A DNA stretch of 64,000 nucleotides from Capsulimonadaceae bacterium (GCA_965215505.1 OZ244065.1:1-64000); one strand, 5' to 3'. Numbered from the stretch's first letter, positions 19,984-45,134 are shown. The notes: generated by a model not told the origin, from the sequence alone. Translations and numbers: made by a program.

Positions 19984-22983
19984 TCACAGCGCCTTGCGGA
20001 TCATCTCGCGGCAGACCGGAGCCGCCGCAGAGCGGCCGAAGCCCGCGTTCTCGACGATGCAGGCGAAGGCCAGGGTGGGGCGGTCGGCGGGGGCGAAGCC
20101 GACGAACCAGGAGTGGGTCCGGCCCTGGCCCTGGTTGTTCTGGGCGCTGCCCGTCTTGCCGGCGACCGACGCGGGCAGGCCGTCGAAAACGCCGGAGGCC
20201 GTGCCGCCGGGCCGCGTGACGGCGGCGAGCATTAGACGCATGTGGGCGGCCTGGTCCGGCGTCATGGCGGCCGTTCCCTCACTGATTTTGCCGCGCGTTT
20301 TCAGGAAGATGACGGGCAGAAGACGGCCGTTGTTCCCGACGGCCTGCGCGACGCGGGCCATCTCCAGCGGCGTCACCTGCACCGCGCCCTGACCATAGGC
20401 GCAGTCCGGCAGGTCCTCGCCGAGTCTGGCGACGGGGGGAAGGTGGGCCAGGCCGAACTGCGCGTGCCCGGTCTGGTACAGTGCCTTCGGCCCGAGGTCA
20501 ATGCCGAGATGGGCGAAGTAGACGTTGCACGAGACGCGCAGCGCCTTCGCCATGTCGGTCGCGCCGTGCGGCACGAAGCCCTCCTCGTCGGTGACGCGCC
20601 GCCGGGAGTAGTTCTGGCCGCCGAAGTGCCAGACGACGTTGGTGTCCGTGTGGTTGCAGGTGACGACCGTATTCCCCAAGCCATACGCCAGGCCCGCCGT
20701 GGCCGTGACGATCTTGAAGGACGAGCCGGGCGGGTACAGGCCGGACAGGGCGCGGTTGAAGGCAGGCCCGGCGGGCTGCTTTTGAAGCGCGTCCCATTCG
20801 TCCGCTGTTAGCGCCGCCGGGTCGAACGTAGGCAGGGAAGCGAGGGCCAGCACTTCGCCCGTCGCGACATTCAGCAGGACGGCCGCGCCTCTGTTCTGGG
20901 GCTGCCCGGTGTGCCGGTCCTTCACCCGCGCGGCGTAGGTGTGCAGGGCGTCGGTCGCCGCCTGCTGCAAGTCCCTGTCAATCGTCAGAGTCACATCTTG
21001 CCCGCGCGGCGTGTGGTGGAAGGGGAGGTTCTGCGTCCGGTAGGGGCCGAGCAGGTCCGGGTAGCTTGCGAACCCGCGCAGGCGGTCGTTCTGCCCCAGG
21101 GCGTTCCCCGCCGAGGCGGGCCTCTCGATGGCCCACACTGTCTGGGCGCAAGCCGCGCCGCCGGGGTAGACGCGCGGGCGGCCGTCGGGACAAAGCAGGG
21201 CCGTCTGCCCCGGCTCATCGTCCGAAACCGGCCCGCGCGCCAGCACCTGCCCGTTCCGGTCCTTGATCGTGCCGCGCGGGATGTCGGCGGCATAGGCCAG
21301 CAGGCGCGGGTTGATGTGGGCAGGCAGCGGTCCGCCCGGCACGGTGTCCCGGTCGGGGGTTCGCAGGAGCCGCGTGGCGATGCCCTCGTCGTGGATGCCC
21401 TGCACGTCGAACAGCCGCAGGACGCCGACGCCGAGCAGGAGGTAGGCGGCGCAGCCGACGGCCAGCGCCCGCGCCGTCCGCGACCACTCGGGCGTCGCCC
21501 GGTCCACGGCTGCGGACGGGAGCGTCCTGCCGGACAGGTGCAGCAACAGCCCGACGGCGAAGAACGAGGCGACCAGGGAGGACGCGCCGAACGAGACGAA
21601 CGGCAGGGTGATGCCGGTCAGCGGCGTCAGGCCGGAGACGCCGCCCAGGATGATCATGGCCTGGAAGCCGAGCAGCAGGGTCAGGCCCGCCGCCAGCAGC
21701 CGGTCAAAATCGGTGACGGCCCGCCGCGCGATGTGGAGGCCGCGCGCGATCAGCAGGCTGTAGACAGCCAGCAGGACCAGGGCACCGATCAGACCCGTTT
21801 GTTCCCCGTAGGTCGCGAAGATCGAGTCCGAGCCGGCGCGCGGCACGAACTCGGGCCGGCCCAGGCCCAGCCCGCTGCCCCACAGCCCGCCGGTCGCCAT
21901 GCCCCACAGCCCCTGCGCGAGCTGCGCCCCGTTCCGGTCGGCGTTGTCCCACGGGTGCAGCCACATGACGACGCGGGTGGCAAAGAACCCGAAGTGCAGC
22001 GCGTACCCCGCGCAGGCGGCGAGCAGCAGCAGGACGGTCCCGACGAGGGGATAGACGACGCGGCGCGTTGTCAAGTAGAGAAGGGCCAGGAAGACGCCGA
22101 ACAGCAGCACGGCCGGCCCGAGGTCCTTGACGACGAGGAAGAGGAACAGGCAGAAGGCGTAGACGCCCGCCAGCGGCCCGAAGTCGGCCAGCCGGGGCAG
22201 GGCGGCCTTGGCGTCTCCTAATGTCCCCTGCCGTTCGGCGAGATAGGAGGCGATAAATAGGACCAAGAGTATCTTGATGAATTCGACCGGCTCTACACCG
22301 AATAGCTGGATGTGGATGCCGCCCGGCCCGTGTCCCAGCACTAACAGCCCCAGCATCAGCAGCACGGCGGCCCCGGCATAGGCATACTTGTACCGGCGCA
22401 GGGGCAGCCGCCCGAAGGGCCGCGTCAGGGGCAGGAGCAGTGCGAGCAACCCATACAGCGCGACCCCCCACACCTGCCCCGTGAAGGCGAACGAGTCACG
22501 GTACGGGTCCTTGACGCTGTAGACCAGCATCAGCCCCAGGCCTGACAGCAGGGCCGTGAACGGCAGCAGGAACGGGTCGGCGGTCGGGGCGGTCTTCCGC
22601 AGGACGGCGTGAACCAGCCACCAGACAATGAGGAACGCCGCCGCCCCGCCCCAGAAGAGGTGCGAGACATCGGCAGGCGTCCGCGCGACGAACTTGTCGT
22701 CAATGTCCGCCGTCTGCACGTCTTTGAGGGCTTTCGCGTGGCGCAGGCCATAGACCGACGACCAGCCGCGCCCGCGCACCGTTACCAATGCGTGCGCCGT
22801 GTCCGGCCCGACCGAGAGCGCCTGGGCGAGCTGCGCCGCCGTCGCCGCGTTGATGTTGAACGGCTGGGCCGGATAGTCAGTCGTCGCCTTCTTGCCCAGG
22901 AAGACCAGGGCCAGCCCGAAGAGCAGCACGACCTGGACGGCGAGGAGCAGCAGGAATTCGGTTTTGCGGTTGGAAGATTTCAT
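19984..22983 (-). CDS. HhH + FtsW/RodA/SpoVE SEDS glycosyltransferase + class B PBP transpeptidase fusion
   Basis: SEDS motifs EPVEFIK, KDLGPA, DSIF and TGITLPFVSFG; transpeptidase motifs SSFK, SCN and KTG; N-terminal FNINAATAAQL...VGPDTA. Confidence 0.9.
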   Translation of the reverse strand: MKSSNRKTEFLLLLAVQVVLLFGLALVFLGKKATTDYPAQPFNINAATAAQLAQALSVGPDTAHALVTVRGRGWSSVYGLRHAKALKDVQTADIDDKFVARTPADVSHLFWGGAAAFLIVWWLVHAVLRKTAPTADPFLLPFTALLSGLGLMLVYSVKDPYRDSFAFTGQVWGVALYGLLALLLPLTRPFGRLPLRRYKYAYAGAAVLLMLGLLVLGHGPGGIHIQLFGVEPVEFIKILLVLFIASYLAERQGTLGDAKAALPRLADFGPLAGVYAFCLFLFLVVKDLGPAVLLFGVFLALLYLTTRRVVYPLVGTVLLLLAACAGYALHFGFFATRVVMWLHPWDNADRNGAQLAQGLWGMATGGLWGSGLGLGRPEFVPRAGSDSIFATYGEQTGLIGALVLLAVYSLLIARGLHIARRAVTDFDRLLAAGLTLLLGFQAMIILGGVSGLTPLTGITLPFVSFGASSLVASFFAVGLLLHLSGRTLPSAAVDRATPEWSRTARALAVGCAAYLLLGVGVLRLFDVQGIHDEGIATRLLRTPDRDTVPGGPLPAHINPRLLAYAADIPRGTIKDRNGQVLARGPVSDDEPGQTALLCPDGRPRVYPGGAACAQTVWAIERPASAGNALGQNDRLRGFASYPDLLGPYRTQNLPFHHTPRGQDVTLTIDRDLQQAATDALHTYAARVKDRHTGQPQNRGAAVLLNVATGEVLALASLPTFDPAALTADEWDALQKQPAGPAFNRALSGLYPPGSSFKIVTATAGLAYGLGNTVVTCNHTDTNVVWHFGGQNYSRRRVTDEEGFVPHGATDMAKALRVSCNVYFAHLGIDLGPKALYQTGHAQFGLAHLPPVARLGEDLPDCAYGQGAVQVTPLEMARVAQAVGNNGRLLPVIFLKTRGKISEGTAAMTPDQAAHMRLMLAAVTRPGGTASGVFDGLPASVAGKTGSAQNNQGQGRTHSWFVGFAPADRPTLAFACIVENAGFGRSAAAPVCREMIRKAL

Positions 22984-23023
22984 AAAGAGACGTAGCCATT
23001 ATGCCTGCGGGTACAATGGGGGC

Positions 23024-24031
23024 ATGGACCCGCTCGCCCGCAAGATCTCCGACTTCATCCAGGACACGCCCGCCACAGACGCCGCGTTTGAGGCGCTGGC
23101 GCTCGCCCAATTCAAACGGCAGTATGAGTGCTGCGCGCCCTATCGCCGCCTCTGCGACGGCCTAGGGCGGACGCCGGACCGCGTAAACCGCTGGCAGGAC
23201 ATCCCCGCCGTGCCCGCCCAGGCTTTCAAGGTCTATGACCTCTCCTGCGCCCCGATGTTTCAAACCGTCGCCGCCTTCCACTCGTCGGGGACGACCGGCG
23301 CGCAGACCAGCCGCCACTTCCTCGATGCCGACGCCCTGGCTCTCTATGAAACCAGCCTACGGGCCGGCTTTGACGCCGCATTCCCCGACCGTCCGCACCG
23401 CCTGTGGGCGCTGATGCCGGACCCCAGAACCGCGCCGCGTTCATCCCTCTCGCACATGCTGGGGACGCTGGACGCGGAGCGGTTCTACTGGGAGGATGAC
23501 GCCGCGCTGACCTCGGACCTTGCCGCACTGACGGAGCCAGTGACGCTGTTCGGCACCGCCTTCGCCTTCGTGCAGCTCTTTGATGGCACCGGTCAGAACT
23601 GGCGTCTGCCCGCCGGCAGCCTGATCATCGAGACGGGCGGCTTCAAAGGCCGGGCGCGCGAGGTGCCGCGCGAGGAGCTGTACGCCCTGTTCGGGACCCG
23701 TCTGGGCGTTCCAGCCGAGGACTGCCACAGCGAGTACGGCATGTCCGAGATGGCCTCCCAGTTCTACGGGCGCGGCCTGGACCCGGTCAAGCGCGGGCCG
23801 CATTGGGTGCGGACGCGGGCGATTGACCCCGAAACCGGCGAGGACGCCGCGCCGGGTACGCCGGGCCTATTGCGCCACTACGACCTGGCGAACTGGAACT
23901 CCGTCCAGGCTTTGCAGACGCAGGACCTGGGGACTCTGACGCCGGACGGCTTCGTCCTGCATGGCCGCGCCCCAGATGCCGAGGTGCGCGGCTGCTCGCT
24001 GACGGTGGAAGAGCTATGGACGAAAGCGTAG
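23024..24031 (+). CDS. LuxE-family acyl-protein synthetase
   Basis: FHSSGTTG, IETGGFKGR, SEYGMSE, TQDLG and GRA...RGCS motifs. Confidence 0.88.
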   Translation: MDPLARKISDFIQDTPATDAAFEALALAQFKRQYECCAPYRRLCDGLGRTPDRVNRWQDIPAVPAQAFKVYDLSCAPMFQTVAAFHSSGTTGAQTSRHFLDADALALYETSLRAGFDAAFPDRPHRLWALMPDPRTAPRSSLSHMLGTLDAERFYWEDDAALTSDLAALTEPVTLFGTAFAFVQLFDGTGQNWRLPAGSLIIETGGFKGRAREVPREELYALFGTRLGVPAEDCHSEYGMSEMASQFYGRGLDPVKRGPHWVRTRAIDPETGEDAAPGTPGLLRHYDLANWNSVQALQTQDLGTLTPDGFVLHGRAPDAEVRGCSLTVEELWTKA

Positions 24032-25284
24032 ACGGCATCATGGCGGCACTCGCGCGGCTCCGGCAGCGGCACGCGGATGTCCTTGCGCCGATGCCGCAGG
24101 CGGAGGTCGTCAGCAGCCTGATGGAGTGGGCGGGCCTCTGGCGTGACCCGACCTATCCGCCGCGCGTGAAAGCCCAGACGTGGCAGGAGCCGTTCCCGTT
24201 CGCGATGGTGCAAGTCAGTCTGGATGCCCTGCTGGACTCGCTGACTACGGAGTCCCTATGGGCGCTCATTGACGCCGAGGATATGCGGGATGCCCAGGGA
24301 TACCCAGTTGTCGGCCATGTCATCGCGGGCAACACGCCGCTGCTGGCCTGGGTCAGCATCATCCGCGCCCTGCTCGTTCGCAGCGCCTCTTTCGTGAAAT
24401 TGCCCTCCGGCCCGGCGTCGGAGTGGGCCAAGCTCTTCTGCCACTCGCTTTTCCAGGTTTCGCCTAACCTACGCTTCTGTGTCGAACTGGCGGAGTGGCC
24501 GGGCGGCACGACGGAACTAGACGCCGCGCTTTGCGCTGGGGTGGACCTCGTCATGGCGCACGGCGGCAATGCGACGATGCAGGCCCTACACGCCCTCTGC
24601 CCACCTCAGACACCCTTCGTCGGCTACGGCCACCGCGTCTCATACGGGTTGGTGACACGCGGGAACGGCACGGCGGAAGCCGCCGTAGGCTTTGCTAGAG
24701 ACGTGCTGCTTTATGACCAGGGCGGCTGCCTCTCCCCGCAGACTGTCTTCGTGGAAGGCGGTTGGGAAGACACACTGGCCTTTGCCGAACGTCTGGCGGC
24801 GGCCCTGCCCGATGCGGCGGCGCGCTACCCGCTGCCCGTCCGCGCTGATCGGGCTGGGGCCGCTGTCCGGGAGGCGCGCGCCCTGGCCTTGATGGGGGAG
24901 GGGAACCGTCTGTGGGAGGACCCCGGCCTGCGCTGGACCGTCATCGCCCGCCCACAATCCGTGTTCGCCCCCTCGCCGACGTTCGGCGTCGTGTCAGTCC
25001 AGCCGCTCGCCGCCCTCGAAGACCTGCCGGAAGCCCTCGCACCCGTCGCCGGGTATTTGCAGGGCTGCGCCGTAGCGGGCGAGGAGGACGACTACATCCC
25101 CCGCGTCTCCTACCTCTGCAAGCCGGGCGAACTCCAGGCCCCGCCTTTGTCGTGGCGGCAGGACGGGCGGGACGTGCTGCGCGTCCTGACCCCGCCGCAT
25201 CACTACAGGGCCGACGGCATCACCACGAGTTGCGTCCCCGATGGCAGTGTCTCCGGGGAGACTTCCAGCGTCGAGGAGGCGTGA
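24016..25284 (+). CDS. LuxC-family acyl-CoA reductase
   Basis: HVIAGNTP, GYGHRVS and YDQGGCLSP motifs; overlaps the luxE-like gene. Confidence 0.85.
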   Translation: MDESVDGIMAALARLRQRHADVLAPMPQAEVVSSLMEWAGLWRDPTYPPRVKAQTWQEPFPFAMVQVSLDALLDSLTTESLWALIDAEDMRDAQGYPVVGHVIAGNTPLLAWVSIIRALLVRSASFVKLPSGPASEWAKLFCHSLFQVSPNLRFCVELAEWPGGTTELDAALCAGVDLVMAHGGNATMQALHALCPPQTPFVGYGHRVSYGLVTRGNGTAEAAVGFARDVLLYDQGGCLSPQTVFVEGGWEDTLAFAERLAAALPDAAARYPLPVRADRAGAAVREARALALMGEGNRLWEDPGLRWTVIARPQSVFAPSPTFGVVSVQPLAALEDLPEALAPVAGYLQGCAVAGEEDDYIPRVSYLCKPGELQAPPLSWRQDGRDVLRVLTPPHHYRADGITTSCVPDGSVSGETSSVEEA

Positions 25285-34375: not shown

Positions 34376-36382
34376 CTATGCCGCCATTCGGAGAGCGGCG
34401 GGATCGGTCGCAGCCTCCAAGGGGAACTGCCGCACCAGTTCATTCAAATAGACTGTCATCGTATTCAGGCGCAGGGCGGCCTCGTTGATCTCCTGAATGC
34501 TGCCCGTCTGCGACTCGACCGTGACGGAAACATTCCGCGCCTGCGCGGTCACCGCTTCCGATGCACTGTCCAGGACCTTCAGCACCTGCTCGTTGTCCCC
34601 TGTCGCCGCGTGCATCGTGTCCATCGTCGCCTGGACGGTCTGCATGGCGGCAGCCATAGTCACCGCCGTGATCCGGGCGGCCTTGACCTCGGAGGCGACG
34701 GATTGGGCGGCAGACTGGATCGAGGAGAGCGCCGCGCTGGCTTCTTGACTGCGCGCGGCACCTGCGGCGACCTCCTTGGTCATGGCTCCGATGGCCTGAA
34801 TGGATGCATCGACTTCGGCACGGATGCCGTCAACCAGGTCTGAAATCTCTCGGGTGGCGGTCGTCGAGCGTTCCGCCAGCTTGCGGACCTCGCTGGCGAC
34901 CACGGCGAACCCGCGGCCCCGCTCGCCGGCGTGCGCCGCCTCGATGGCGGCGTTCAGGGCGAGGAGGCTGGTCTGGCCGGCGATGTCGTCAATGGTTTCC
35001 ACGATCGAGCCGATCTGGCCGCTTTTGCGTCCCAGCTCGACCACCGTGAGTGAGGAGTGGTCCACCTGCTTCCGGATGCGCGCCATGCTCGCGAGGGTTT
35101 GGGTGACCGCTTCCCCGCCGGCCACGGCGATGTCGGCGGCGCGCTCGGCCGAAGCGGCCGTCTGCTGGGCCGAGTGAGCCACCAAACGGGCGGCCTCCCC
35201 CGCCTCGCGTATTCCCTCCCCCGCCTGCTCGACCGCCCGACGCTGGGACACCGAGACGGCAAGCATCGTCGCCGTGGCGCGGACGGACTCGGCGATGGAG
35301 GACGTCACCTCGTCCATGGCATGGGCGACCTGACCGGCCACGCCGCTCGCGTGTGAGGCGGAGGAGGAGAGCTGCCCGCTCGTCTGGGCGACGGTGTCCG
35401 CGCCGGCGCTCACTTGTGTCATGAGGTGGCGCAGTTTCCCGATCACGGCATCCAGCGATGACCTCGCTTCCTCAAGCGCGCGCGTCCGCTCCTCTACGCG
35501 GCTCTCCAGGGTCTCGTTCGCCTGCCGGATGACACCGGCGCTCTTGTTGAGCTGGATCAGGAACCCGGCGACACAGGCCAGCAGCAGGGCGCAGAACAGG
35601 CCCAGAGCCAGGTCGTAAGCGTTGCTGCGTTCCTGGCGGGCATGATAGAGCGCCTGGTCCGCCTGGAACAGCCCGTCGTTCTGCCGGCCGGCCGGCAGGG
35701 TCACGATCTGGTCGAGGAGGCCATCCACGGCGGCGCGCTGGGTCAGGATCAGGCGCGCGTGGGCGAGCAGCAGGTCAAGGTCAGGCTGGGAGTCCTTCGG
35801 GAACCGGGGGCGCGCTTTGTCCAGCCCATCGGCCAGGCTCAGAATTTCGGCCTCGCCGCCCTTCGCGTTCCCGGAATCGTAGATCAAGACCTTGCGGAGA
35901 AGCTTGTCCGCCTGCGCCGCGCCGCCCGTCCCCCGCACGCCGTCGGCGTTCCGGATGCCGTCTTCCAGCACCGGCAGATAAGCCACCGAGTTCTTGAGGA
36001 TGGCGTTCTTGGATTTGAAGTCCTCGATCAACTGCTGCTGCCGCGAAATGGTGTCCAAGTACTCCCGTAACGGCGCGTCGAGCCTGCCCGACGGATACAG
36101 GACGTGGGCGTCTCCGGGAAGGCGAACCGCCGCCGCGCTCAGGTCTTCGGAGGTGGAGACGACCGGGTCATAGTTGGTCAGCAGGGAGAAACGCAGTTCA
36201 AGCGCCTCCTGAGTCAGAAGTCCATCCTGCTCTTTCATCCGGCGGAGATCATCCACGAGCCGCGTGTGTTCAGCCATCTGGCCCGTCCGGGAATTGGCGA
36301 ACAGGAAGCCAAGCAGCGCAAGCGCCATGATGCTCAGGGACCACCACTTCAGGTGCGCCTTTGTCTTGCCTCTTTCGCTCAT
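34376..36382 (-). CDS. methyl-accepting chemotaxis protein with DAHL-like sensor domain
   Basis: Two TM segments; [19 protein letters not shown] and LLAHARLIL (DAHL-like); [35 protein letters not shown] signalling core. Confidence 0.9.
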
Positions 36383-37425
36383 TTCGGGTTCTCCGGTTGT
36401 TTCGGACTGTCTGGCTGCTTCCCGGTGGTGCTATTAAGGAATCCGACGATCTGGACAAGCTCCTTGGGCTCCAGGGGATGGCCCAATTGGTACATCGCCA
36501 TGACCTCGACGGCTTGGGGAAGGGTGGTCGCCGAGCCGTCGTGGAAGTAGGGCGCGGTGAGGGCGACGTTACGCAGGCTCGGAACCCGGAAGACGTGTTT
36601 GTCGCTCTCGCGGCCGGTGACGGCGTACCGCCCGAGGTCGGCATCGGTCTCGTGGCCTCGGGCGGCGAAGTAGTCGCCCATGACGCCGAACTTCTGGAAC
36701 ATGTTGCCGCCGATGTTGGCTCCCTGATGGCAGGAGACGCAGCCGTCCTGCTTGAAGAGGAGATACCCTTGCTTTTCGTCGGCGCTCAAAGCTGCCCGGT
36801 CTCCGCGCAGGTAGCGGTCGAAGCGGCTGTCCGGGGTGAGCAGCGAACGCTCATAGGTCGCGATCGCGTCGCGGACGTTCCGGGGATGAAGCCCGTCCGG
36901 GTACAGCGCCGCAAAGGCCGCCCGGTATTTGGAGTCCCGGCGCAGTTTGCCCATGATCTCGTCCCAATCGGACCCCATCTCTTTGGGATTGTGTGTCGGG
37001 CCGTTGACCTGGTCTTCCAGGGTGTTCGCCCGCCCGTTCCAGAACTGCCTGTAGTTGAGGCCGCTGTTGAGGACCGTCGGCGCGTTGACCCCGCCGAGCG
37101 CGCCCCCGATGCCGACGGAGTGGGTCAGCTGGTCGGTCCCGCCCTTGCCCAGAGCGTGACAGCCGGCACAGGAGAGGGTGTCGTCATGGGAAAGGCGCTT
37201 GTCCTGAAAGAGTTGAGCGCCGAGTGCGACCTTAGCGGCATCCAGCTCAACTCTTTCGGGTATCGGCTGGATAGGTTCTTCCAGAATGTGGGCGCTCGGC
37301 TGGAGGTCGGCGGACAGCGGCGTCCACGCCTGGGCCGGTTTGGGCTTGGGCAGCAGGAAGAAAGTCGCCGCCAGGAGTATCAGAAAAGCCGAGGTCGTCA
37401 GCAGGAGAAAGATCGGTCTTTTCAT
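36379..37425 (-). CDS. di-heme cytochrome c peroxidase (CCP/MauG family)
   Basis: CAGCH and CVSCH heme motifs; [26 protein letters not shown]. Confidence 0.92.
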
Positions 37426-37637: not shown

Positions 37638-38468
37638 TTGAGCGACGCATACCGACTCGCCGCCATTGACCTGGACGGCACGCTGCTCGGCAGCGACCAT
37701 GCCCTCAGTCCGGGCAACGCCGCCGCCGTCCGGCGGGCGGCGTCTGCCGGCGCGAAGATCGTCCTCGCCTCGGGCCGTCAGTGGCGCACGATTGACGCAT
37801 TCGCCGGGCAGCTCGATCTGCCGCCCGAGGCACCCATCATCGCCTATAACGGCGCGATGATCCGCACGCACGGCGGCGAAACGTGGTTCCACCAGCCCCT
37901 TCCCGCCGAGGCTTCCGAGGCCATCGTCCGCTACTGCGTCGCGAACGGCTACCACCTCAACCTCTACCACGACGACACGCTTTATGTCCAGAATGACACC
38001 GTCTGGGGGCGACTCTACCGTGAGCGGACCGGCACGGTTCCGCACATCACCGATCTGGCGCGGTTCGACGGCGAGCGGCCCACCAAGCTGCTGCTGATCG
38101 ACACATTGGAAACCACGAATCGCCTGCTGGTCCACTTCCAGGCCGAGTTCGGCCGGTCGCTCTACATCACCAAGACCGAGGACGAGTTTTTGGAGTTCAT
38201 GGACCCGGACATCAACAAGGGCGCGGCGCTGAAGGAGACTGCCGAGCGGTTGGGCGTGACGGCGGCGCAGTGCGTGGCCTTCGGCGACTCCTACAATGAC
38301 CTCGCGATGGTCGAGTGGGCGGGCATGGGCGTCGCGATGGGGAACGCGCGGGCCGAGCTAAAGGCGGTCGCCGAGCGCGTCGCCCCGACCGCCGACGAGG
38401 ACGGCGTCGGCGCGGTGCTGGACCAGCTCTTCCCGGTCCAGGACCAGCTCTTCCCGGTCCATCCATAG
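37638..38468 (+). CDS. Cof-type HAD-IIB hydrolase
   Basis: DLDGTLL, ASGR, YNGA and FGDSYND motifs. Confidence 0.92.
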   Translation: MSDAYRLAAIDLDGTLLGSDHALSPGNAAAVRRAASAGAKIVLASGRQWRTIDAFAGQLDLPPEAPIIAYNGAMIRTHGGETWFHQPLPAEASEAIVRYCVANGYHLNLYHDDTLYVQNDTVWGRLYRERTGTVPHITDLARFDGERPTKLLLIDTLETTNRLLVHFQAEFGRSLYITKTEDEFLEFMDPDINKGAALKETAERLGVTAAQCVAFGDSYNDLAMVEWAGMGVAMGNARAELKAVAERVAPTADEDGVGAVLDQLFPVQDQLFPVHP

Positions 38469-39506
38469 GACGAGCAGGAAGTGCGGGAACGTCAGGGCCG
38501 CGATCAGCGACAGGTAGAGGTACACGAAAGCCCCCGCCGTGACGTGGGCGCGTCCGTGCCACCAGAACAGGGCCGCCAGCATCGCCAGCGCCCCGAGCGT
38601 CATCGGCAAAGCCTGCCGCGCGACTCGCAGGATGGGTCTCGCCGTCTCCCCGCGCGCCAGAAGGGCGCGGCCGGCTTCATCCAGCAGCATCAGCCGGGCG
38701 AGATGACGGGCCGAGTGCCAGACGCAGAAGTAGACGCCGACCGCCAGGATCGGCGGCACCAGGCTGAAATAGATCAGCAGCAGGCACACCTCTCCGGCAT
38801 CCCGCCGAAACCCCGGACGGTGCGCTCGCCACGACTGCCACAGGTAGGCCGCGCCGAGCGCCGCCAGTACGGCCATCCCCGCCTCCCGACCCTGTCCGCG
38901 CGGTGTCCAGGCCGGGGCCGAGCCGTACCAGCCGAGGATGCCCCCGGCGACCTGCGCGAACACCGACGGGAAGGCCAGTGCGGGCAGGACAATCGGCAGA
39001 CCGCCCCGCACGAGCCACACCGTCAGCCGCTCGCCCCAGCCCCGAGGTGCCGGCCTCCCCTCGAACGCTTCCAGAAAATAGGCGTCGCCCTGTCCCCAAT
39101 GCAGCCACGAGAACAGCAGGAAGACGGCCAGAGCCGCCGGCGGCAGAGTGTGCCAGAAGGCGAGATAGACGGCCACCAGGGACATGTATCCCAGCACGAA
39201 GAGGAGCAGATAACGCGGCGTCAGCCGGCGGCGACGCAGGAACAGCGGTGCCAGATGGTCCAAGGCTCCGTGCGGCAGGCCCAGGAAGACCATGCCGAGT
39301 AGGAACGGGAGGAACTGCCAGCGGGCGGCAAAGCCGGGCAAAAGGTGTGAGAGGAGCAGCACGGCCAGCAGCGTCCCCCAAGCGGGGTAGGTCAGCCACC
39401 TTCGGAGACGTCTGACGGCCTGGTTCGGGGCCGGAGCGTCCGGGCCGCCGCCAGGAGGAACGGCCCCAGCGGGAGGCTCCGGATGATCTGCGAATCGCTG
39501 TGCCAT
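38358..39506 (-). CDS. blh: Brp/Blh beta-carotene 15,15'-dioxygenase (start uncertain)
   Basis: GLPHGALDH, HWGQGD, YFCVWHSARH and IAALTFPH motifs; adjacent to crtY and rhodopsins. Confidence 0.9.
   Translation of the reverse strand: MAQRFADHPEPPAGAVPPGGGPDAPAPNQAVRRLRRWLTYPAWGTLLAVLLLSHLLPGFAARWQFLPFLLGMVFLGLPHGALDHLAPLFLRRRRLTPRYLLLFVLGYMSLVAVYLAFWHTLPPAALAVFLLFSWLHWGQGDAYFLEAFEGRPAPRGWGERLTVWLVRGGLPIVLPALAFPSVFAQVAGGILGWYGSAPAWTPRGQGREAGMAVLAALGAAYLWQSWRAHRPGFRRDAGEVCLLLIYFSLVPPILAVGVYFCVWHSARHLARLMLLDEAGRALLARGETARPILRVARQALPMTLGALAMLAALFWWHGRAHVTAGAFVYLYLSLIAALTFPHFLLVLWMDREELVLDREELVQHRADAVLVGGRGDALGDRL
38420..38461. repeat. perfect 21-bp tandem duplication
   Basis: GGACCAGCTCTTCCCGGTCCA occurs twice in tandem. 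Confidence 0.9.
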
Positions 39507-40594
39507 GTGCCGGCCTCCGAAAGAAAAGCGGTCAATGCCTCGGGCGGGACGTGGGCGAAGAGCCGCTGGAAATGGCCTGGGAATGCGCCTGGGTCGTCCC
39601 GCAGAGCGCGCAGGAAGACGGCGTCGAAGAAGCGGTAGCGGGCCGGGGCGGGCCGCTCACGGAACCGATCCAGTGTCCCGGCCGCCGCCGCGTCGGCGAT
39701 CTGCCGGCACTGTTCCTGGATGCGCGCGAACGTGTACCCGCTGGAGGGCTTGGTACACCCGCCCGCCGTGCCGATGAAGAACACGCGCCCGTCGCGCTTG
39801 GGGAAGGGCCGCATCGTCATCGGGATGGCCCCGGCTTCCTCGCGCGTAACCGCATATTCGGTCACGCCGCGCTGCCGCGTGAGGTGCGCCGAGATCTGCG
39901 CCCGGTGCTGTTCCGGCGTCTGCCTCGCCGCCCGGCTGTCCTGGATGTAGGTGTCCTCGACCAGAGCCTCTGTGGGGGAGAAAGGGAGAGTGTAGAGGAA
40001 GTGCAGGCCGTCCGACTGCGACACCCGGAAGTCCATCAGCGTACAGCGCGTGGAATCAAATTGGGGCGTCTCCGTTCGGACGAATTGCCCGAAGAATCTC
40101 TGCGTCAGGGCATCGCCGTCCTCGGGACATGAGCGTAGTCGGCTGTCGAAGACGTAGTCGGCCGGGTAGATCGCGCCTCCTGCCCGCACCACGGCATGGC
40201 CCGGCGTGGCGTCGCATGACTCCACGGGGCAGCCCAGAGCGAGCGTGACATTGCCCGACCGGCCGATTTCTTCCACGACATGGGCATAGAAGTCCCTGCT
40301 GTGGAGGCAGGCGTAGCCGACGGAGGGTGACGTCTGGGTCGCCGCCCGGCCCGCCGCGTCGAAGACATCCCAGCGGTGCCAGCAATGGGCCGCGAGGTCG
40401 GTGAACGGGGTGGGGCAGGTGTCCCAGAAACACCAGGTCCGGTCGTCGGCAAACGCCGCCTTACGGTCCAGGATCAGGATCGGGTCTTGGATGCCGCGTT
40501 GCAGGAGATAATGGCAGAGGCTCAACCCCGCCGCTCCTGCGCCGAGGATGATGTATCTGTACCGGGTTCCGGCGGTGGCCACGGGGGCCGTCAC
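39392..40594 (-). CDS. crtY: lycopene beta-cyclase (CrtY-type)
   Basis: GAGAAGLS, DRTWCFW, LMDFRV, FLYTLPFS, EEAGAIPM and GTAGGCTKPSSGY motifs. Confidence 0.9.
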   Translation of the reverse strand: MTAPVATAGTRYRYIILGAGAAGLSLCHYLLQRGIQDPILILDRKAAFADDRTWCFWDTCPTPFTDLAAHCWHRWDVFDAAGRAATQTSPSVGYACLHSRDFYAHVVEEIGRSGNVTLALGCPVESCDATPGHAVVRAGGAIYPADYVFDSRLRSCPEDGDALTQRFFGQFVRTETPQFDSTRCTLMDFRVSQSDGLHFLYTLPFSPTEALVEDTYIQDSRAARQTPEQHRAQISAHLTRQRGVTEYAVTREEAGAIPMTMRPFPKRDGRVFFIGTAGGCTKPSSGYTFARIQEQCRQIADAAAAGTLDRFRERPAPARYRFFDAVFLRALRDDPGAFPGHFQRLFAHVPPEALTAFLSEAGTWHSDSQIIRSLPLGPFLLAAARTLRPRTRPSDVSEGG

Positions 40595-40603
40595 TTTCTA
40601 AAG

Positions 40604-40631
40604 GAGCCGCCCGTCCGGAAGCGGGCGGCTC
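40604..40631 (-). terminator. strong hairpin between rhodopsin 1 and crtY
   Basis: GAGCCGCCCG/CGGGCGGCTC 10-bp stem with only a weak U tract (CTTT). Confidence 0.5.
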
Positions 40632-40651
40632 TCGGCCTGATGGGCAGGGAG

Positions 40652-41518
40652 TCAGCGCGTTTGGCCCTCCGGGTGGCCCGTACCCGCATTGATGCGGAGG
40701 CTTCCTGAGCCGTCGGCGTCCTGCGGCAGCCGCTCCGGACTCTCCAGATCGTCCCCGGACAGTGCTTTGACCGCGAGATAGGCAGTCACGCCGAATCCCA
40801 CCTTGTTGATCACGTCCCCAACCGAAGAAGCGACGTTGAACCAGTCCAGGTTGATGCCCCACGAGAGGTGCGAAGCCGACAAACCCTCGAACCAGTAGAC
40901 GATGGGGTAGATGCCCCACAGGCTGACGAGGTACAGGTTCATTGATTTGATCCCGTGCCGGATCGGGAGCGGCTGCGACGCGGCTAGCCGGCTGCCCTCG
41001 GTCAGCAGCAGGTACAGGATCACGGCATAGCCGAGCGTGGAGATTGTACCCCAAATGTAGTGCGCCTGGATAGCGCCCGCTGTGCCGGGGAACCAGTGGC
41101 CATGAAGGGTGGTCCCGTACAGTTCCCCGATGAAGCCCGTCACGATCATGAACAGGTCGGCAAGGATCAGCTTCCAGGCGAAGGCGAAGCCGCGCACCTT
41201 CAGCATCTCCGGGTACTTCAGCAGCAGGAGCGGCGTCGTCACCGTCCAGTCCACATACCGGACGTCCGTCGGGAACGGTCTGTCCGGCGCGTACTGGGCG
41301 GTGAGGTAGTAGTAGGCCACGGCGGCGACCCCGCAGATCATGGCCGAAGTGACCATGGTGCCACGGTAGGCGGGCAGGATTTTCTCACGTTCGGAGAGGA
41401 AGAAGACGAAGGCCGCACCGAGCGCGAACATGGCGGTGAAGAGGCTGTAATGCACGAACGCCTCCGAAGTCGTCCAGTGCGTGACGGCGTTGTCGAGACC
41501 TACATGGTCAAGGCCCAT
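40652..41518 (-). CDS. microbial (type 1) rhodopsin, DTK motif
   Basis: 7 TM segments; helix C RYVDWTVTTPLLLLK; WGIYP; helix G DVINKVGFG with the retinal-binding Lys. Confidence 0.93.
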   Translation of the reverse strand: MGLDHVGLDNAVTHWTTSEAFVHYSLFTAMFALGAAFVFFLSEREKILPAYRGTMVTSAMICGVAAVAYYYLTAQYAPDRPFPTDVRYVDWTVTTPLLLLKYPEMLKVRGFAFAWKLILADLFMIVTGFIGELYGTTLHGHWFPGTAGAIQAHYIWGTISTLGYAVILYLLLTEGSRLAASQPLPIRHGIKSMNLYLVSLWGIYPIVYWFEGLSASHLSWGINLDWFNVASSVGDVINKVGFGVTAYLAVKALSGDDLESPERLPQDADGSGSLRINAGTGHPEGQTR

Positions 41519-41875
41519 CGAAAACTCTTTCTAATCAGTGCGGACCGGTGCGTTTCCGGGACGCCTGACGGCGGGAATATATGACATTGTACGCGCATGG
41601 GGCGGGCGTTAAACGTGCCGCGCTCGATGCCAAGGACCCGCCGCATCTTGTGACACACATGTTCAAGCAAGGGTTGACAGCGCCCCCCCATATGTGGTAT
41701 TTACCAGGATAGCCGTCTAGGTGGCAACGTGATAATTGCCACCCGTCATTGCCCTCCACTCGGGGCAGTAGACTTAGTCAGGAGAACACAGGTACTCGGG
41801 TAGGGAGTGCCTACGCACGGTAGCGTTTTTACCGCAGGAAGGTCTGACGTCAACTCATTTAGAAAAGGTCTCACA

Positions 41876-42691
41876 ATGCCTGACACGAACGTGCTCAGCT
41901 CCGGCGCGTACAGCGCCGTCTACAACGGACTCTCTCTCGCCGTCGCCGCGATGCTTGCGGGGACTCTCTTCTTCTTCTTCTCGCGCACACAGGTCGGTTT
42001 CAAGTACCGTCCTGCCCTCCTGGTATCGGCGCTCGTCACCGCCATCGCGTGCTACCACTACTTCCGCATCTTCAACAGCTGGGTCGATGCCCACGCGGTC
42101 AACGCCTCCGGCAGCTACGACCTGACCAAGAACACCTTCAACGACGCCTACCGCTACATGGACTGGATTCTGACCGTGCCCCTCCTGCTCGTGGAACTGG
42201 TCGCCGTTCTGGGGCTGCCGAAAGAGGAGAGTCGCGGCCTGCTCGTCAAACTCGCCGTCGCCGCCTTCTTCATGATCGCGCTCGGCTATCCGGGTGAGAT
42301 CCAGACGAACCTGGGCCTGCGGACGCTTTGGGGCACGCTCAGCACGATCCCCTTCGTCTACATCCTGTTCATCCTATGGAAGCAGCTCAGCACGTCGCTC
42401 GAGCATCAGCCGGCGGCAGTCAAGCCGCTCGTCCGCGGCGCGCGCCTCCTGACCCTGGCGAGTTGGGGCTTCTACCCCATCGCCTACATGATCCCCCTGC
42501 TCGGCAACGGCATTCCCTACGAGGGGAAGCAGATCGGCATTCAGGTCGGCTACACCATCGCGGACATCATCGCGAAGGTCGGCCTCGGCGTGTTCATCTA
42601 CTTCATCGCCATGGCGAAGACCGAGAACGACGCCCGGACCGGCGCTAACCCCTTCGAGCCGACGATTGGGGCGGCCACGGCACCGGCCTAG
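41876..42691 (+). CDS. xanthorhodopsin/Gloeobacter-rhodopsin-like proton pump, DTE motif
   Basis: ACYHYFRI, FNDAYRYMDWILTVPLLLVE, LGYPGE, WGTLSTIPF, WGFYP and DIIAKVGLG motifs; start ATG 41876 after AAAGG. Confidence 0.95.
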   Translation: MPDTNVLSSGAYSAVYNGLSLAVAAMLAGTLFFFFSRTQVGFKYRPALLVSALVTAIACYHYFRIFNSWVDAHAVNASGSYDLTKNTFNDAYRYMDWILTVPLLLVELVAVLGLPKEESRGLLVKLAVAAFFMIALGYPGEIQTNLGLRTLWGTLSTIPFVYILFILWKQLSTSLEHQPAAVKPLVRGARLLTLASWGFYPIAYMIPLLGNGIPYEGKQIGIQVGYTIADIIAKVGLGVFIYFIAMAKTENDARTGANPFEPTIGAATAPA

Positions 42692-42730
42692 TCCCGTCCC
42701 GCGACAGGAGGGATGCTCCTCCAAACACAA

Positions 42731-42757
42731 AGCCGCGCCCCTTCACGGGGCGCGGCT
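42731..42757 (+). terminator. intrinsic terminator
   Basis: AGCCGCGCCCC-TTCAC-GGGGCGCGGCT with a T-rich tail downstream. Confidence 0.65.
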
Positions 42758-42810
42758 CCTTCACCTTTTGGTTTTCCTTGCACTGCGGTGAATAGAAAAT
42801 GGGGTTCCGG

Positions 42811-42978
42811 ATGACAAAGAGGCCGATCAAGTTCGTCGCCTGGGCCGTGATCGCGGCTGGATTTTTTCTGGCGAACTACGCCGCCCAGCATTCCTGGCCG
42901 CTCTGGACGATCACGATCACCGGGGCCGTCTTCATCGGCGCGGTCGTGGCATACGTCCTGACGGCGCAGTCACAGTAG
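42811..42978 (+). CDS. 55-aa two-TM membrane protein
   Basis: MTKRPIKFVAWAVIAAGFFLANYAAQHSWPLWTITITGAVFIGAVVAYVLTAQSQ*; below the ORF-track length cutoff. Confidence 0.55.
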   Translation: MTKRPIKFVAWAVIAAGFFLANYAAQHSWPLWTITITGAVFIGAVVAYVLTAQSQ

Positions 42979-42992
42979 GCGAGTGAGACAGG

Positions 42993-43694
42993 CTAGTTCA
43001 GCGAGGACAGCCTGCCGAGCGCCTGGGTGTCCACGGGTAGGATCGTCCCTTCGGCTTCCGTCCGGGTGCCGAACGTCTCCTGGATCGCGTCCTGCGCCTC
43101 GATCTCCGCGCGCAGGAGTTCGGCCTCATACTCCAGCCGACTGACCGTGTCGCCGATCTCCAGCAGACTCTGTTTCTCCGCCAGCGGCACTTGCAGGACG
43201 CTGGCGACGGCATAAGACAGGTAGGCAGGCTCCTGGGGGAGCTGCAATGCGCCGAGGGAACGGCCCGTCATCGCGAAGAGCGCGCGCAGGTATTTCTTGA
43301 AGAGGCCCGTTACAGTTTCGGTGACGGGCTGCACGCGGACGGGGTCGTCCGCCCCTTCGGACAGCGGCTCGACGCTCGCGGAGAGGTAAGGCTTGTCGTA
43401 GGATGTCCGCGTCACGCGGAAGCGCGTCTCCCCGAAGACCAGGATGTTCATGCGTCCGTCCGGCATCTCCTCGAACTGGGTGATGCGCGCCGTGGTGCCG
43501 ACCAGGTGCGGGACGACCTGCCCGCCTTCTTCCGCGCCGTCTTGGATCAGGACCACGCCGAACGGCGAGTTCTCCTCCCGGCACCGCATGATCATCTCCC
43601 GGTAGCGCGGCTCGAAGATGTGCAGGGGGAGCGGCATGTCGGGGAACAGAACGACGTGCAGCGGGAACAGGGGGATGTCATCATAGTCTACCAT
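42993..43694 (-). CDS. Lon peptidase N-terminal (substrate-binding) domain protein
   Basis: IPLFPL..VLFP...LPLHIFEPRY motif. Confidence 0.9.
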   Translation of the reverse strand: MVDYDDIPLFPLHVVLFPDMPLPLHIFEPRYREMIMRCREENSPFGVVLIQDGAEEGGQVVPHLVGTTARITQFEEMPDGRMNILVFGETRFRVTRTSYDKPYLSASVEPLSEGADDPVRVQPVTETVTGLFKKYLRALFAMTGRSLGALQLPQEPAYLSYAVASVLQVPLAEKQSLLEIGDTVSRLEYEAELLRAEIEAQDAIQETFGTRTEAEGTILPVDTQALGRLSSLN

Positions 43695-43721
43695 GGCATG
43701 CTCACTTGCTAGTCGGGGCGA

Positions 43722-44003
43722 CTACTCCGGGAGGATGGCGATATAGCCCAAGTCCTGCCCGAGCCGGAGGAACTCGTCCGCAGTCTGCGGGAGGCCGTAT
43801 CTGGTCTGGTGGGAGCCGTTATACAGTTCGACCGCCTTCTGGGCGAAACCGAGCGGCGTCATGGCGCTGAGGAACAGGCCCTTCCAGCCCAGCTCCTTCG
43901 CCACCCGCGCCTTGGCCTGGGCCAGAACATCGTCGGCGTCCGGCCCGGTCAGCACCTCGTCCACCTTGCGCCCCGCCACTTCCATCGTCACCCGGACCTT
44001 CAT
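43722..44003 (-). CDS. hypothetical protein
   Basis: 93 aa; TATAAT 6 nt before the ATG. Confidence 0.65.
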   Translation of the reverse strand: MKVRVTMEVAGRKVDEVLTGPDADDVLAQAKARVAKELGWKGLFLSAMTPLGFAQKAVELYNGSHQTRYGLPQTADEFLRLGQDLGYIAILPE

Positions 44004-44069
44004 GGCGTGATTATACCCACTTCGTCCCCAAACCGCTCTGCCCCCTTTCTCGTCTCGTCGCTCCCTTTC

Positions 44070-45134
44070 TCATGCACGTCCCTCCGCCTGTCCCAGGGCG
44101 CGGTCCACGTCGTCGCGGAACGAGCGGAGCATGTCCTCGTCCCCGGTCGCCAGGCAGACGCAGTTGTCCCCGGCTTCGTAGTAGACCAGAAGGGTTCCGT
44201 CTTTGATGACCACCCCGGTCGGGAAGACTATGCCGCCTTTCTCCCTGCTGAACTCATACGTCTCCTGTGGGCCGAACACCCACTCCGGCCACCGCGCGAG
44301 GACGCGGCCCGGATCGTCCTTGTCCAGCAGTGCAATGCCGAAGCGGTACTCCCAGCCGCCCTCCGTCGGTTCCACGCCGTGGAAGATCAGCGCCCACCCA
44401 TCGGGCGTCTCCAGGGGCGGCGGCCCCGCCCCGACCTTGCCGCTGCTCCAGCCGGGCTGGTCATCCTCCTCTAGCACACAGCGCGGGTTGCCCCAGTGGA
44501 TCAGGTCCTCGCTCTCCGAAATCCAGATGTTCTCCTGCGGCCCCGCCGTCGGGCGGTGCAGAAGTTGATACTTGCCGCCGATGAGGCGCGGGAACAGCAC
44601 GGCGTCTTTGTTGTAGGGGTGGATCGCCAGCCCCAGGCGCGTCGCCGTCCGGAAGTCGCGCGTCGTCGCCAGGCAGACGCCCGCGCCGCGGCGCGACCAG
44701 CCGACGTAGGTGATGACGTACTCGCCCCGGTCCGCCAGGAAAGTCAGGCGCGGGTCCTCGCATCCCAAGTTGTCGTACCAGGCCGCTCCCTCGTTCGGGG
44801 AGAGCAGGGGCGTCTCCTCGATGCGCCAGCCGCCGGCCCCGTCCGCCGAGCGGGCGACATGGAGGTGGGAGTGGTCCTGGTCGTCAATGACTCTTAGAAG
44901 CAGCACGACCTCGCCGTCCACCAGGCACGCACCTGGGTTGCAGACGGCTTTGCAGGGGAACGGCATGTCCTCCGGCCGCAGGATCGGGTTCTTCGGGCTG
45001 CGCGTGAACAGCTCGCGCGCCCGCTCGATGTAGAGCGCCGGGATCGCCGAGGTCCGCTGCCGCGCCCCGGCGCGTTCGTCGGCCTCGATCTCCCTCTTCT
45101 GCGCTGCCATGGTCTGTTCCATGAAGTGCCTCAT
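44070..45134 (-). CDS. GH130-like glycosidase/phosphorylase (5-bladed propeller)
   Basis: NPIL, CNPGA, GCEDPR, NKDAVLFP and KVGAGPPP motifs; start ATG 45134 after GGAGG. Confidence 0.88.
   Translation of the reverse strand: MRHFMEQTMAAQKREIEADERAGARQRTSAIPALYIERARELFTRSPKNPILRPEDMPFPCKAVCNPGACLVDGEVVLLLRVIDDQDHSHLHVARSADGAGGWRIEETPLLSPNEGAAWYDNLGCEDPRLTFLADRGEYVITYVGWSRRGAGVCLATTRDFRTATRLGLAIHPYNKDAVLFPRLIGGKYQLLHRPTAGPQENIWISESEDLIHWGNPRCVLEEDDQPGWSSGKVGAGPPPLETPDGWALIFHGVEPTEGGWEYRFGIALLDKDDPGRVLARWPEWVFGPQETYEFSREKGGIVFPTGVVIKDGTLLVYYEAGDNCVCLATGDEDMLRSFRDDVDRALGQAEGRA

Follow-up and report, generated by a model that had tools for sequence, protein, structure and literature searches.

Why would a bacterium that otherwise looks like a polysaccharide degrader keep two dissimilar rhodopsin genes back to back, beside one set of genes for making retinal? 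The question is raised by a 64,000-nucleotide stretch of DNA from a Capsulimonadaceae bacterium (GCA_965215505.1 OZ244065.1:1-64000), here called the window, over whose whole length all positions are numbered; loci of relatives are coded L, genomes G and public runs X. Aquatic bacteria are the best-known users of rhodopsin phototrophy. The window encodes GH39, GH31, an arabinofuranosidase, a fucosidase, GH130 and a polysaccharide deacetylase, which fits the remark of the original prediction on the sugar-degrading lifestyle. That prediction interpreted the opsins as a co-regulated divergent pair. We detected that the divergent layout is an in-place inversion of a 1.1-kb cassette, in which one opsin gene travels with a small open reading frame (ORF). 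Taken as a whole, it is fairly probable that this is a retinal-phototrophy locus of a soil-type, Capsulimonadaceae-type Armatimonadota heterotroph, built of two modules. The module that is older in the family would consist of a rhodopsin with the D-T-K motif, a hairpin, crtY and blh as a single run. The other, present in this genus and one other, would consist of a D-T-E pump of the xanthorhodopsin (XR)/Gloeobacter type and a two-helix protein of 55 amino acids (aa).

Gene content of the locus

The four ORFs of the original prediction, blh, crtY and the two opsins, are present at its coordinates. The features of the locus and its flank are the following.

38358..39506, minus strand: blh (beta-carotene 15,15'-dioxygenase, retinal-forming); PF15461 (BCD) E 1.2e-62, TIGR03753 (NCBIfam blh_monoox) E 2.3e-60
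39392..40594, minus strand: crtY (lycopene beta-cyclase); PF05834 (Lycopene_cycl) E 1e-53
40605..40630, minus strand: G+C-rich hairpin between the DTK opsin and crtY; AGCCGCCC, 10-nt loop, GGGCGGCT, then CCTTT
40652..41518, minus strand: DTK opsin, 288 aa; PF01036 E 4.9e-29, clade-specific alignment
41519..41859, no strand: lineage-specific part of the gap, 340 bp; no blastn match in relatives
41860..42980, plus strand: inverted cassette of ribosome-binding region, XR opsin, hairpin and small ORF; by blastn in the opposite sense to its flanks
41876..42691, plus strand: XR-type DTE opsin, 271 aa; PF01036 E 1.3e-40, PDB 6nwd E 1.8e-87
42731..42757, plus strand: terminator-like hairpin after the XR opsin; AGCCGCGCCCC, 5-nt loop, GGGGCGCGGCT, T-rich tail
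42811..42978, plus strand: small ORF, 55 aa, two predicted membrane helices; alignment of 14 sequences, mean column identity 73%
42993..43694, minus strand: Lon N-terminal-domain (LonN) protein, a flank marker outside the system; PF02190 E 7.4e-42

Both opsins are genuine, intact and dissimilar, as had been claimed. PF01036 scores the DTK opsin at 101.8 bits and the XR-type opsin at 139.7 bits against a cut-off of 24.6 bits, and the two share about 26% identity in tblastn cross-matches. Each has the retinal Schiff-base Lys with an Asp four residues earlier, in DVINK of the DTK opsin (GDVINKVGFG) and in DIIAK of the XR-type opsin (ADIIAKVGLG). HMMER alignment to solved structures set the register of the predicted motifs at bacteriorhodopsin (BR) positions 85, 89 and 96 and confirmed them: RYVDWTVTTPLLLLK of the minus-strand opsin gives D90/T94/K101, with D235 and K239, and RYMDWILTVPLLLVE of the plus-strand opsin gives D96/T100/E107, with D230 and K234. 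D-T-E corresponds to pumps of the XR or proteorhodopsin (PR) type, and Lys at position 96 is a trait known from Exiguobacterium sibiricum rhodopsin (ESR).

The XR-type ORF formally opens at GTG 41807 and has an ATG at 41876. Since homology in the relatives begins at 41860-41871, ATG 41876 is the likely start, and the gap between the opsins is 41519-41875, the 357 bp proposed originally; ORFs and Pfam agree on the back-to-back arrangement. ORF order and families likewise confirm that the DTK gene heads a run into crtY and blh. The crtY start is GTG 40594 or GTG 40582, the blh ORF as called overlaps the end of crtY by 115 nt, and the NCBIfam cyclase models match crtY, all under their cut-off. 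The genome is a single 6.18-Mb contig, in which these two are the only PF01036 genes; crtB and crtI lie elsewhere (352-355 kb), with a second CrtI-family gene at 2.07 Mb. One DTK-crtY-blh transcription unit would supply an opsin together with the last two steps to retinal.

Origin of the divergent layout

Both opsin genes lie on one contig in 13 other genomes, a set that includes G015 and leaves out G013, whose genes are on separate contigs. In all 13, XR lies upstream of DTK on one and the same strand, in the order XR, small ORF, DTK, and in 11 of them the opsins are immediate neighbours with the small ORF alone between. Opsins on opposite strands were found in the window only (1/14). With respect to the synteny that the original prediction proposed to search for, the pairing was recovered in 13 relatives and the divergent order was not. 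The opsin types are linked across two different gene neighbourhoods, and the recurrence of the pairing argues against chance juxtaposition.

The divergent layout is an in-place inversion of the 1.1-kb cassette of XR opsin and small ORF. Window positions 41864-42980 match L001 5769-6893 on the plus strand, the DTK and LonN genes match L001 on the minus strand, and blastn gave identical cassette bounds against G015, G016 and G027. Relatives have XR, small ORF and DTK in this order on one strand, and inversion of the cassette in this genome produced the back-to-back layout. Among close relatives the cassette is found at three positions or orientations. The gene orders compared were these.

G016: o93, LonN, XR, small ORF, DTK, crtY
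G015: XR, small ORF, o93, LonN, DTK remnant, crtY, blh
G025: o93, LonN, DTK, blh
L009: LonN, DTK, crtY, blh

The LonN gene adjoins the locus in L001, L002, L009 and G015 as well. The 93-aa ORF named o93 (43722-44003, minus strand) has no Pfam match and lies beside LonN at about 90% identity in G015, G016 and G025.

A search of the same genome with the 356-bp gap sequence returned that region alone, which rules out a repeat element. An Rfam scan of 41400-43100 gave one sub-threshold match (sbcD RNA, E 0.22), which was dismissed. Because the cassette is inverted in this genome, the 357-bp gap is a lineage-specific junction and not a conserved two-way regulatory region.

The XR-type opsin and its small companion ORF

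Judged by its sequence, the plus-strand opsin is a typical representative of XR/GR (GR, Gloeobacter rhodopsin), a very large family. Its matches among solved structures were 6nwd (E 1.8e-87, 296.5 bits), 9wfa (3e-87, 295.8 bits) and 3ddl (8e-76, 258.3 bits); GR (6nwd) and XR (3ddl) are DTE pumps of the XR type, some of which have a carotenoid antenna. We detected 3465 relatives at E<=1e-60. The clade of the window's opsin comprises 43 clusters at identities of at least 72%, and the rest of the family mostly lies at 54-64%. The residues H61, D96, T100, E107, G153, D230 and K234 were identified, of which D96/T100/E107 and the helix-B His H61 align to GR and XR and are invariant across 13 sequences. 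The carotenoid-fenestration site has Gly: WG in RTLWGTLSTIPF is aligned with XR RGLWGFLSTIPF, and G153 is invariant. We take this antenna site to be the one numbered G156 in XR. Like GR and XR, the plus-strand opsin is a near full-length match with D-T-E, the helix-B His, the antenna-site Gly, D230 and K234; unlike them, it is always trailed by the 55-aa two-helix ORF, which is unmatched outside the lineage.

The small ORF, for which an alternative ATG exists at 42799, encodes two hydrophobic stretches with a conserved FLANYAAQHSWPLWTIT core. It has the signs of a coding sequence: the G+C content at third codon positions (GC3) is 0.85, and dN/dS was 0.13-0.35 in 12 comparisons, a 13th being saturated. 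It lies just downstream of XR in all 16 XR-positive genomes of the family, including two without DTK, and was not found in the DTK-only genomes of the family, apart from a partial copy in G029. The small ORF is thus coupled to XR rather than to DTK, and it has two helices only, without a signalling domain. Among 401 sampled genomes of the phylum it was present in 13, all of one genus. The protein collection held 70 clusters of it, all close and all unnamed or 'hypothetical', and no Pfam family matched. A CryoRhodopsin preprint that had come up under 'small membrane protein' was irrelevant to this ORF.

A model of the complex of XR opsin and small protein scored 0.77, whereas the highest score among 3 controls was 0.00; in the benchmark, 116 of 157 solved complexes and 2 of 215 mismatched pairs attained 0.77. 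At least 94% of the contacts agreed between runs, and the partner had a pLDDT of at least 82. The modelled interface lies on helices B to D of XR, at residues 43-60, 89-113 and 116-139. According to this model, the 55-aa protein probably packs against helices B to D of the XR-type pump. We suggest tentatively, as a possibility, that the XR-type pumps of this genus are two-subunit complexes with the 55-aa protein, and that a movable cassette of XR opsin and small ORF was added beside an older His-less DTK rhodopsin with properties other than those of ESR.

The DTK opsin and its clade

The best solved match of the minus-strand opsin is ESR (PDB 4hyj, E 1.6e-32), a distant one, with D90/T94/K101 aligned to ESR RYIDWLVTTPLLLVK. 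Its key residues are R87, D90, T94, K101, D121, G157, D235 and K239, with Ala68 at the site of ESR His57; the equivalents of R82, D85, T89, K96, D115, D212 and K216 are kept. Like ESR, it combines Lys at the donor position with the equivalents of Asp85, Thr89 and Asp212. Unlike ESR, it has Ala for His57, the helix-B His that interacts with the counterion Asp, its D-E and F-G loops are longer, and it has a conserved C-terminal motif. It also departs from two ESR motifs given in the accessible part of PMC10519204: KYPEMLKVRG replaces FPLLxG at the end of helix C, and LDWFNV is read before helix G in place of LRE (xRE).

A protein search with the DTK opsin found 80 clusters at 51-88% identity, followed by a drop to 38% or less except for one fragment. 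In an exhaustive HMMER search of 1.84 billion representatives, 418 proteins were detected at E<=0.001 and only 9 at E<=1e-30; the nearest full-length protein outside the clade has 40% identity, and it has the DTK motif too. Species-representative genomes contain 23 clade loci (58-84% identity), titled Armatimonadota, Armatimonadales or Capsulimonadaceae with the exception of L003, and in the collections searched the clade did not occur outside a single Armatimonadota family. L003, a contig titled as a Janthinobacterium lividum metagenome-assembled genome, carries a clade DTK opsin (81% identity) among neighbour genes typical of Armatimonadota, and is probably mis-binned.

The DTK motif and the Ala at the ESR His57 site are found in 23 of 23 clade loci. 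The 57 outgroup loci divide into 33 with DTK, 21 with DTE and 3 with DTA; the antenna-site Gly is not countable in them, because WG formed part of the pattern by which they were fetched. Clade members have in common that their D-E and F-G loops are longer and that a cytoplasmic tail after helix G (LSGDxQ.S.ER) is conserved, down to 50% identity. An opsin tree of 90 rows was built from the opsin segments of 80 loci and the window, with no named ESR sequence among the rows; segments that contained stops or had under 200 residues aligned were excluded, among them the DTK opsins of L009 and L022 and the XR opsin of L019. The Armatimonadota DTK clade is monophyletic in this tree (SH-aLRT 99, stem of 1.05 changes per column), which settled no sister group for it.

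'DTK pumps' are a named group in the part of PMC10519204 available to us, and the available part of bioRxiv 10.1101/2022.08.01.502354 reports DTK opsins from other phyla, outside Firmicutes; the DTK motif is therefore not new. On its sequence characters, the His-less DTK clade is probably a divergent branch of this group. The DTK loci of Acidobacteriota (Pyrinomonadaceae) have the same opsin-crtY-blh order, which was seen in many of the outgroup loci (DTK in 33/57). Unlike the DTK opsin of the window, the Acidobacteriota opsins, 33-37% identical to it, keep the His and have no second opsin alongside.

Two rhodopsins in one bacterium have been described. Dokdonia has PR and an XR-like protein (PMC3587595), and another case of paralogues pairs PR with a flotillin-associated rhodopsin (PMC10308929), both according to the accessible parts of these papers. 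As far as those parts go, the locus resembles the multi-rhodopsin bacteria of the Dokdonia type in having two dissimilar rhodopsins and one retinal pathway per genome, and differs from them in that the opsin genes are adjacent, are kept together in 13 further genomes and, for one opsin, have a predicted small membrane partner. We searched the literature on rhodopsins of Armatimonadota and Capsulimonas, on tandem rhodopsin genes and on accessory proteins of rhodopsins, and met with no description of the locus, of the opsin pairing or of Armatimonadota DTK opsins.

Opsin distribution across the family

We surveyed 38 other genomes of the same GTDB family, some of them incomplete, so that absence is to be read as 'not found'.

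Both opsins: 13 of 38 genomes
XR and a DTK remnant: 1 genome (G015)
DTK only: 10 genomes
XR only: 2 genomes (G014, G017)
Neither opsin: 12 genomes

These figures add up to 24 genomes with the DTK opsin and 16 with the XR-type opsin. In 5 of the 23 clade loci, other genera included (L004, L006), crtY and/or blh follow DTK immediately. In G015 (L109:8511-8891) the DTK remnant consists of residues 2-88 and 242-288 with an internal deletion, and the XR opsin, small ORF, crtY and blh are intact; in G018, fragments of DTK that contain stop codons lie on contig C71, at a distance of 3.4 kb from XR. These two genomes are cases of natural loss of DTK where XR is present. Since either opsin can be the sole rhodopsin or be lost, the distribution points to overlapping energy-conserving roles and not to an obligate pair of pump and sensor.

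Translation-start signals, promoters and hairpins

A promoter scan of 38000-44200, limited to sigma-70-type sites, gave 0 sites against 0.8 expected. An SD-like (Shine-Dalgarno-like) TTAGAAAG stands 8 nt ahead of the DTK ATG. TAGAAAG(G) occurs a few bases before DTK (41527-41533, minus strand) and before crtY (40594-40600, minus strand), and its variant TAGAAAAGG before XR (41859-41867, plus strand). TAGAAAG also precedes both opsins in relatives. Across the genome, 52 of 181 copies stand 3-16 nt before a long ORF of high GC3, compared with about 10% for GGAGG. The motif is therefore general and was ruled out as an opsin-specific operator; it may be a preferred translation-start signal of the lineage. 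A small hairpin around TAGAAAG, noted by eye in 8 of 12 XR leaders, was rejected, as RNAalifold gave 0 pairs.

The hairpin between DTK and crtY may act as an attenuator or a partial terminator; owing to its short T run it was not listed by the terminator scan. The hairpin after XR, whose conservation in G016 is about 90%, is an inverted repeat (I11) of 11 nt with 100% complementarity. It resembles the one that follows DTK, in that both show AGCCGC...GCGGCT followed by CCTT.

Weighing of the explanations

In the two-module reading, both opsins would most likely be outward proton pumps with overlapping roles, and every residue expected for such a pump is present in both. The original prediction instead held that a shared two-way control region drives a co-regulated divergent pair, which splits its work by pH, colour or light level. 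We consider this unlikely. The genes are adjacent and divergent in the window, the types are linked in 13 other genomes and two neighbourhoods, which suggests a functional link, and a similar TAGAAAG-type motif precedes both starts. However, the divergent layout occurs in this genome alone among the 14 compared and comes from the inversion, nothing matching the 340-bp spacer was found in the relatives or at any other place in the genome, neither strand has a consensus promoter, and TAGAAAG is a motif of general occurrence. The sequences give no obvious sign of a colour split, since the BR-93 tuning site is Leu and the XR-G156 antenna site Gly in both opsins. A split by pH or kinetics, between a Lys donor without His and a Glu donor with His, is possible. 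The orientation itself could be an assembly error or a reversible, phase-variable inversion, given that one X1 contig joins 42980 to 41519 on opposite strands, in the tandem form, and that a 7-nt inverted match GTCTCAC/GTGAGAC, seen by eye and possibly due to chance, lies at the cassette ends; we regard this as extremely improbable. Contigs of X1, X2, X4 and X6 (runs of 4 studies; one run may be the window's own source) each span both junctions in the window orientation with 0-15 mismatches, which argues against an assembly error. The tandem contig differs at 7/110 and 15/110 nt (6-14%) and so comes from a relative and not from the same strain. No long inverted repeats beyond chance-size matches were found around the cassette, and the genome is assembled as one contig.

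Another explanation makes the XR-type opsin the proton pump and the His-less DTK opsin, with its conserved tail, a photosensor or regulator. The tail motif is conserved clade-wide, Ala replaces the His57 equivalent throughout the 23 loci, and a sensory group related to the DTK pumps is described in the accessible part of PMC10519204. Against this, 10 genomes of the family have no rhodopsin other than DTK, which is also the opsin physically tied to crtY-blh, and its pump residues are retained. Loss of proton donor or counterion, a trait of sensory rhodopsins, was not seen in either opsin: both have the Asp counterions and a Lys or Glu donor. The same part of PMC10519204 gives the Proteo-SRs Tyr at the counterion site and Met at the donor site, unlike the DTK opsin. 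No transducer gene, be it of the Htr type with a signalling domain or of the soluble ASRT type, and no other signalling gene is conserved around DTK in the 23 loci, where the neighbours are housekeeping genes. We find a pump with a sensor, also raised by the original prediction, quite improbable. Just as doubtful in our judgement is a redundant pair in decay, in which XR took over, the inversion cut DTK off from its promoter, and only crtY and blh are still needed. The XR of G015, the closest to that of the window (94%), stands beside a DTK remnant, G014 and G017 have XR without DTK, and the region upstream of DTK is new in the window. But the DTK ORF is intact, 82-84% identical to its nearest relatives and complete in its key residues, the SD-like motif before its ATG is retained, and with crtY and blh downstream the retinal supply seems to need transcription through DTK.

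Several points weigh against the two-module reading that we prefer. We infer pumping by both opsins from their motifs. The counterion-partner His, present in ESR, PR and XR, is absent from the DTK clade, and this, together with the longer loops and the conserved tail, means that the DTK opsin may not behave like ESR. The inversion has given DTK-crtY-blh new upstream DNA with no recognisable promoter, which makes its expression here uncertain; a look for RNA runs with the locus among the public runs gave none, which speaks neither for nor against expression. The related genomes are non-independent, so that 13/13 overstates the number of independent events. The complex was modelled with the XR-type opsin only, and its controls were unrelated natural proteins and not matched membrane helices, so that generic helix packing could also explain the score.

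Other features of the window

A methyl-accepting chemotaxis protein with a DAHL sensor domain is encoded some 1 kb away from the retinal operon, immediately upstream of a di-haem cytochrome c peroxidase gene (34376-37425, minus strand); the relatives' loci do not show this arrangement next to the opsins. Genes for a LuxE-like acyl-protein synthetase and a LuxC-like acyl-CoA reductase adjoin at 22892-25284 (plus strand), a fatty-aldehyde-forming module in a non-luminous context. A 999-aa ORF at 19984-22983 (minus strand) has FtsW/RodA/SpoVE and penicillin-binding transpeptidase domains in one frame, which may reflect a true fusion or an ORF called too long. At 58907-61555 (minus strand) lies the gene of an 882-aa protein that ends in an Ntox28 toxin domain (E 1.1e-34), near the gene of a Phage_base_V/VgrG-type OB-domain protein at 62802-63950 (minus strand); together they look like a contact-dependent or type VI-style effector locus.

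Implications

The orientation of genes in one genome proved a weak basis for inferring co-regulation. If the two-subunit proposal is true, the small ORF would encode an accessory subunit of an ion-pumping microbial rhodopsin, of which the literature searched describes none. Binding of the small protein to the XR opsin could affect folding, oligomer state, antenna binding, regulation and heterologous expression of XR-type pumps. The DTK clade provides a candidate Lys-donor pump without the usual His partner, which may be useful for dissecting reprotonation.

Taken together, a terrestrial-type, sugar-degrading lineage of Armatimonadota keeps two different pump-type opsins side by side, and its relatives with both, either or neither opsin are a natural experiment on the need for two pumps.

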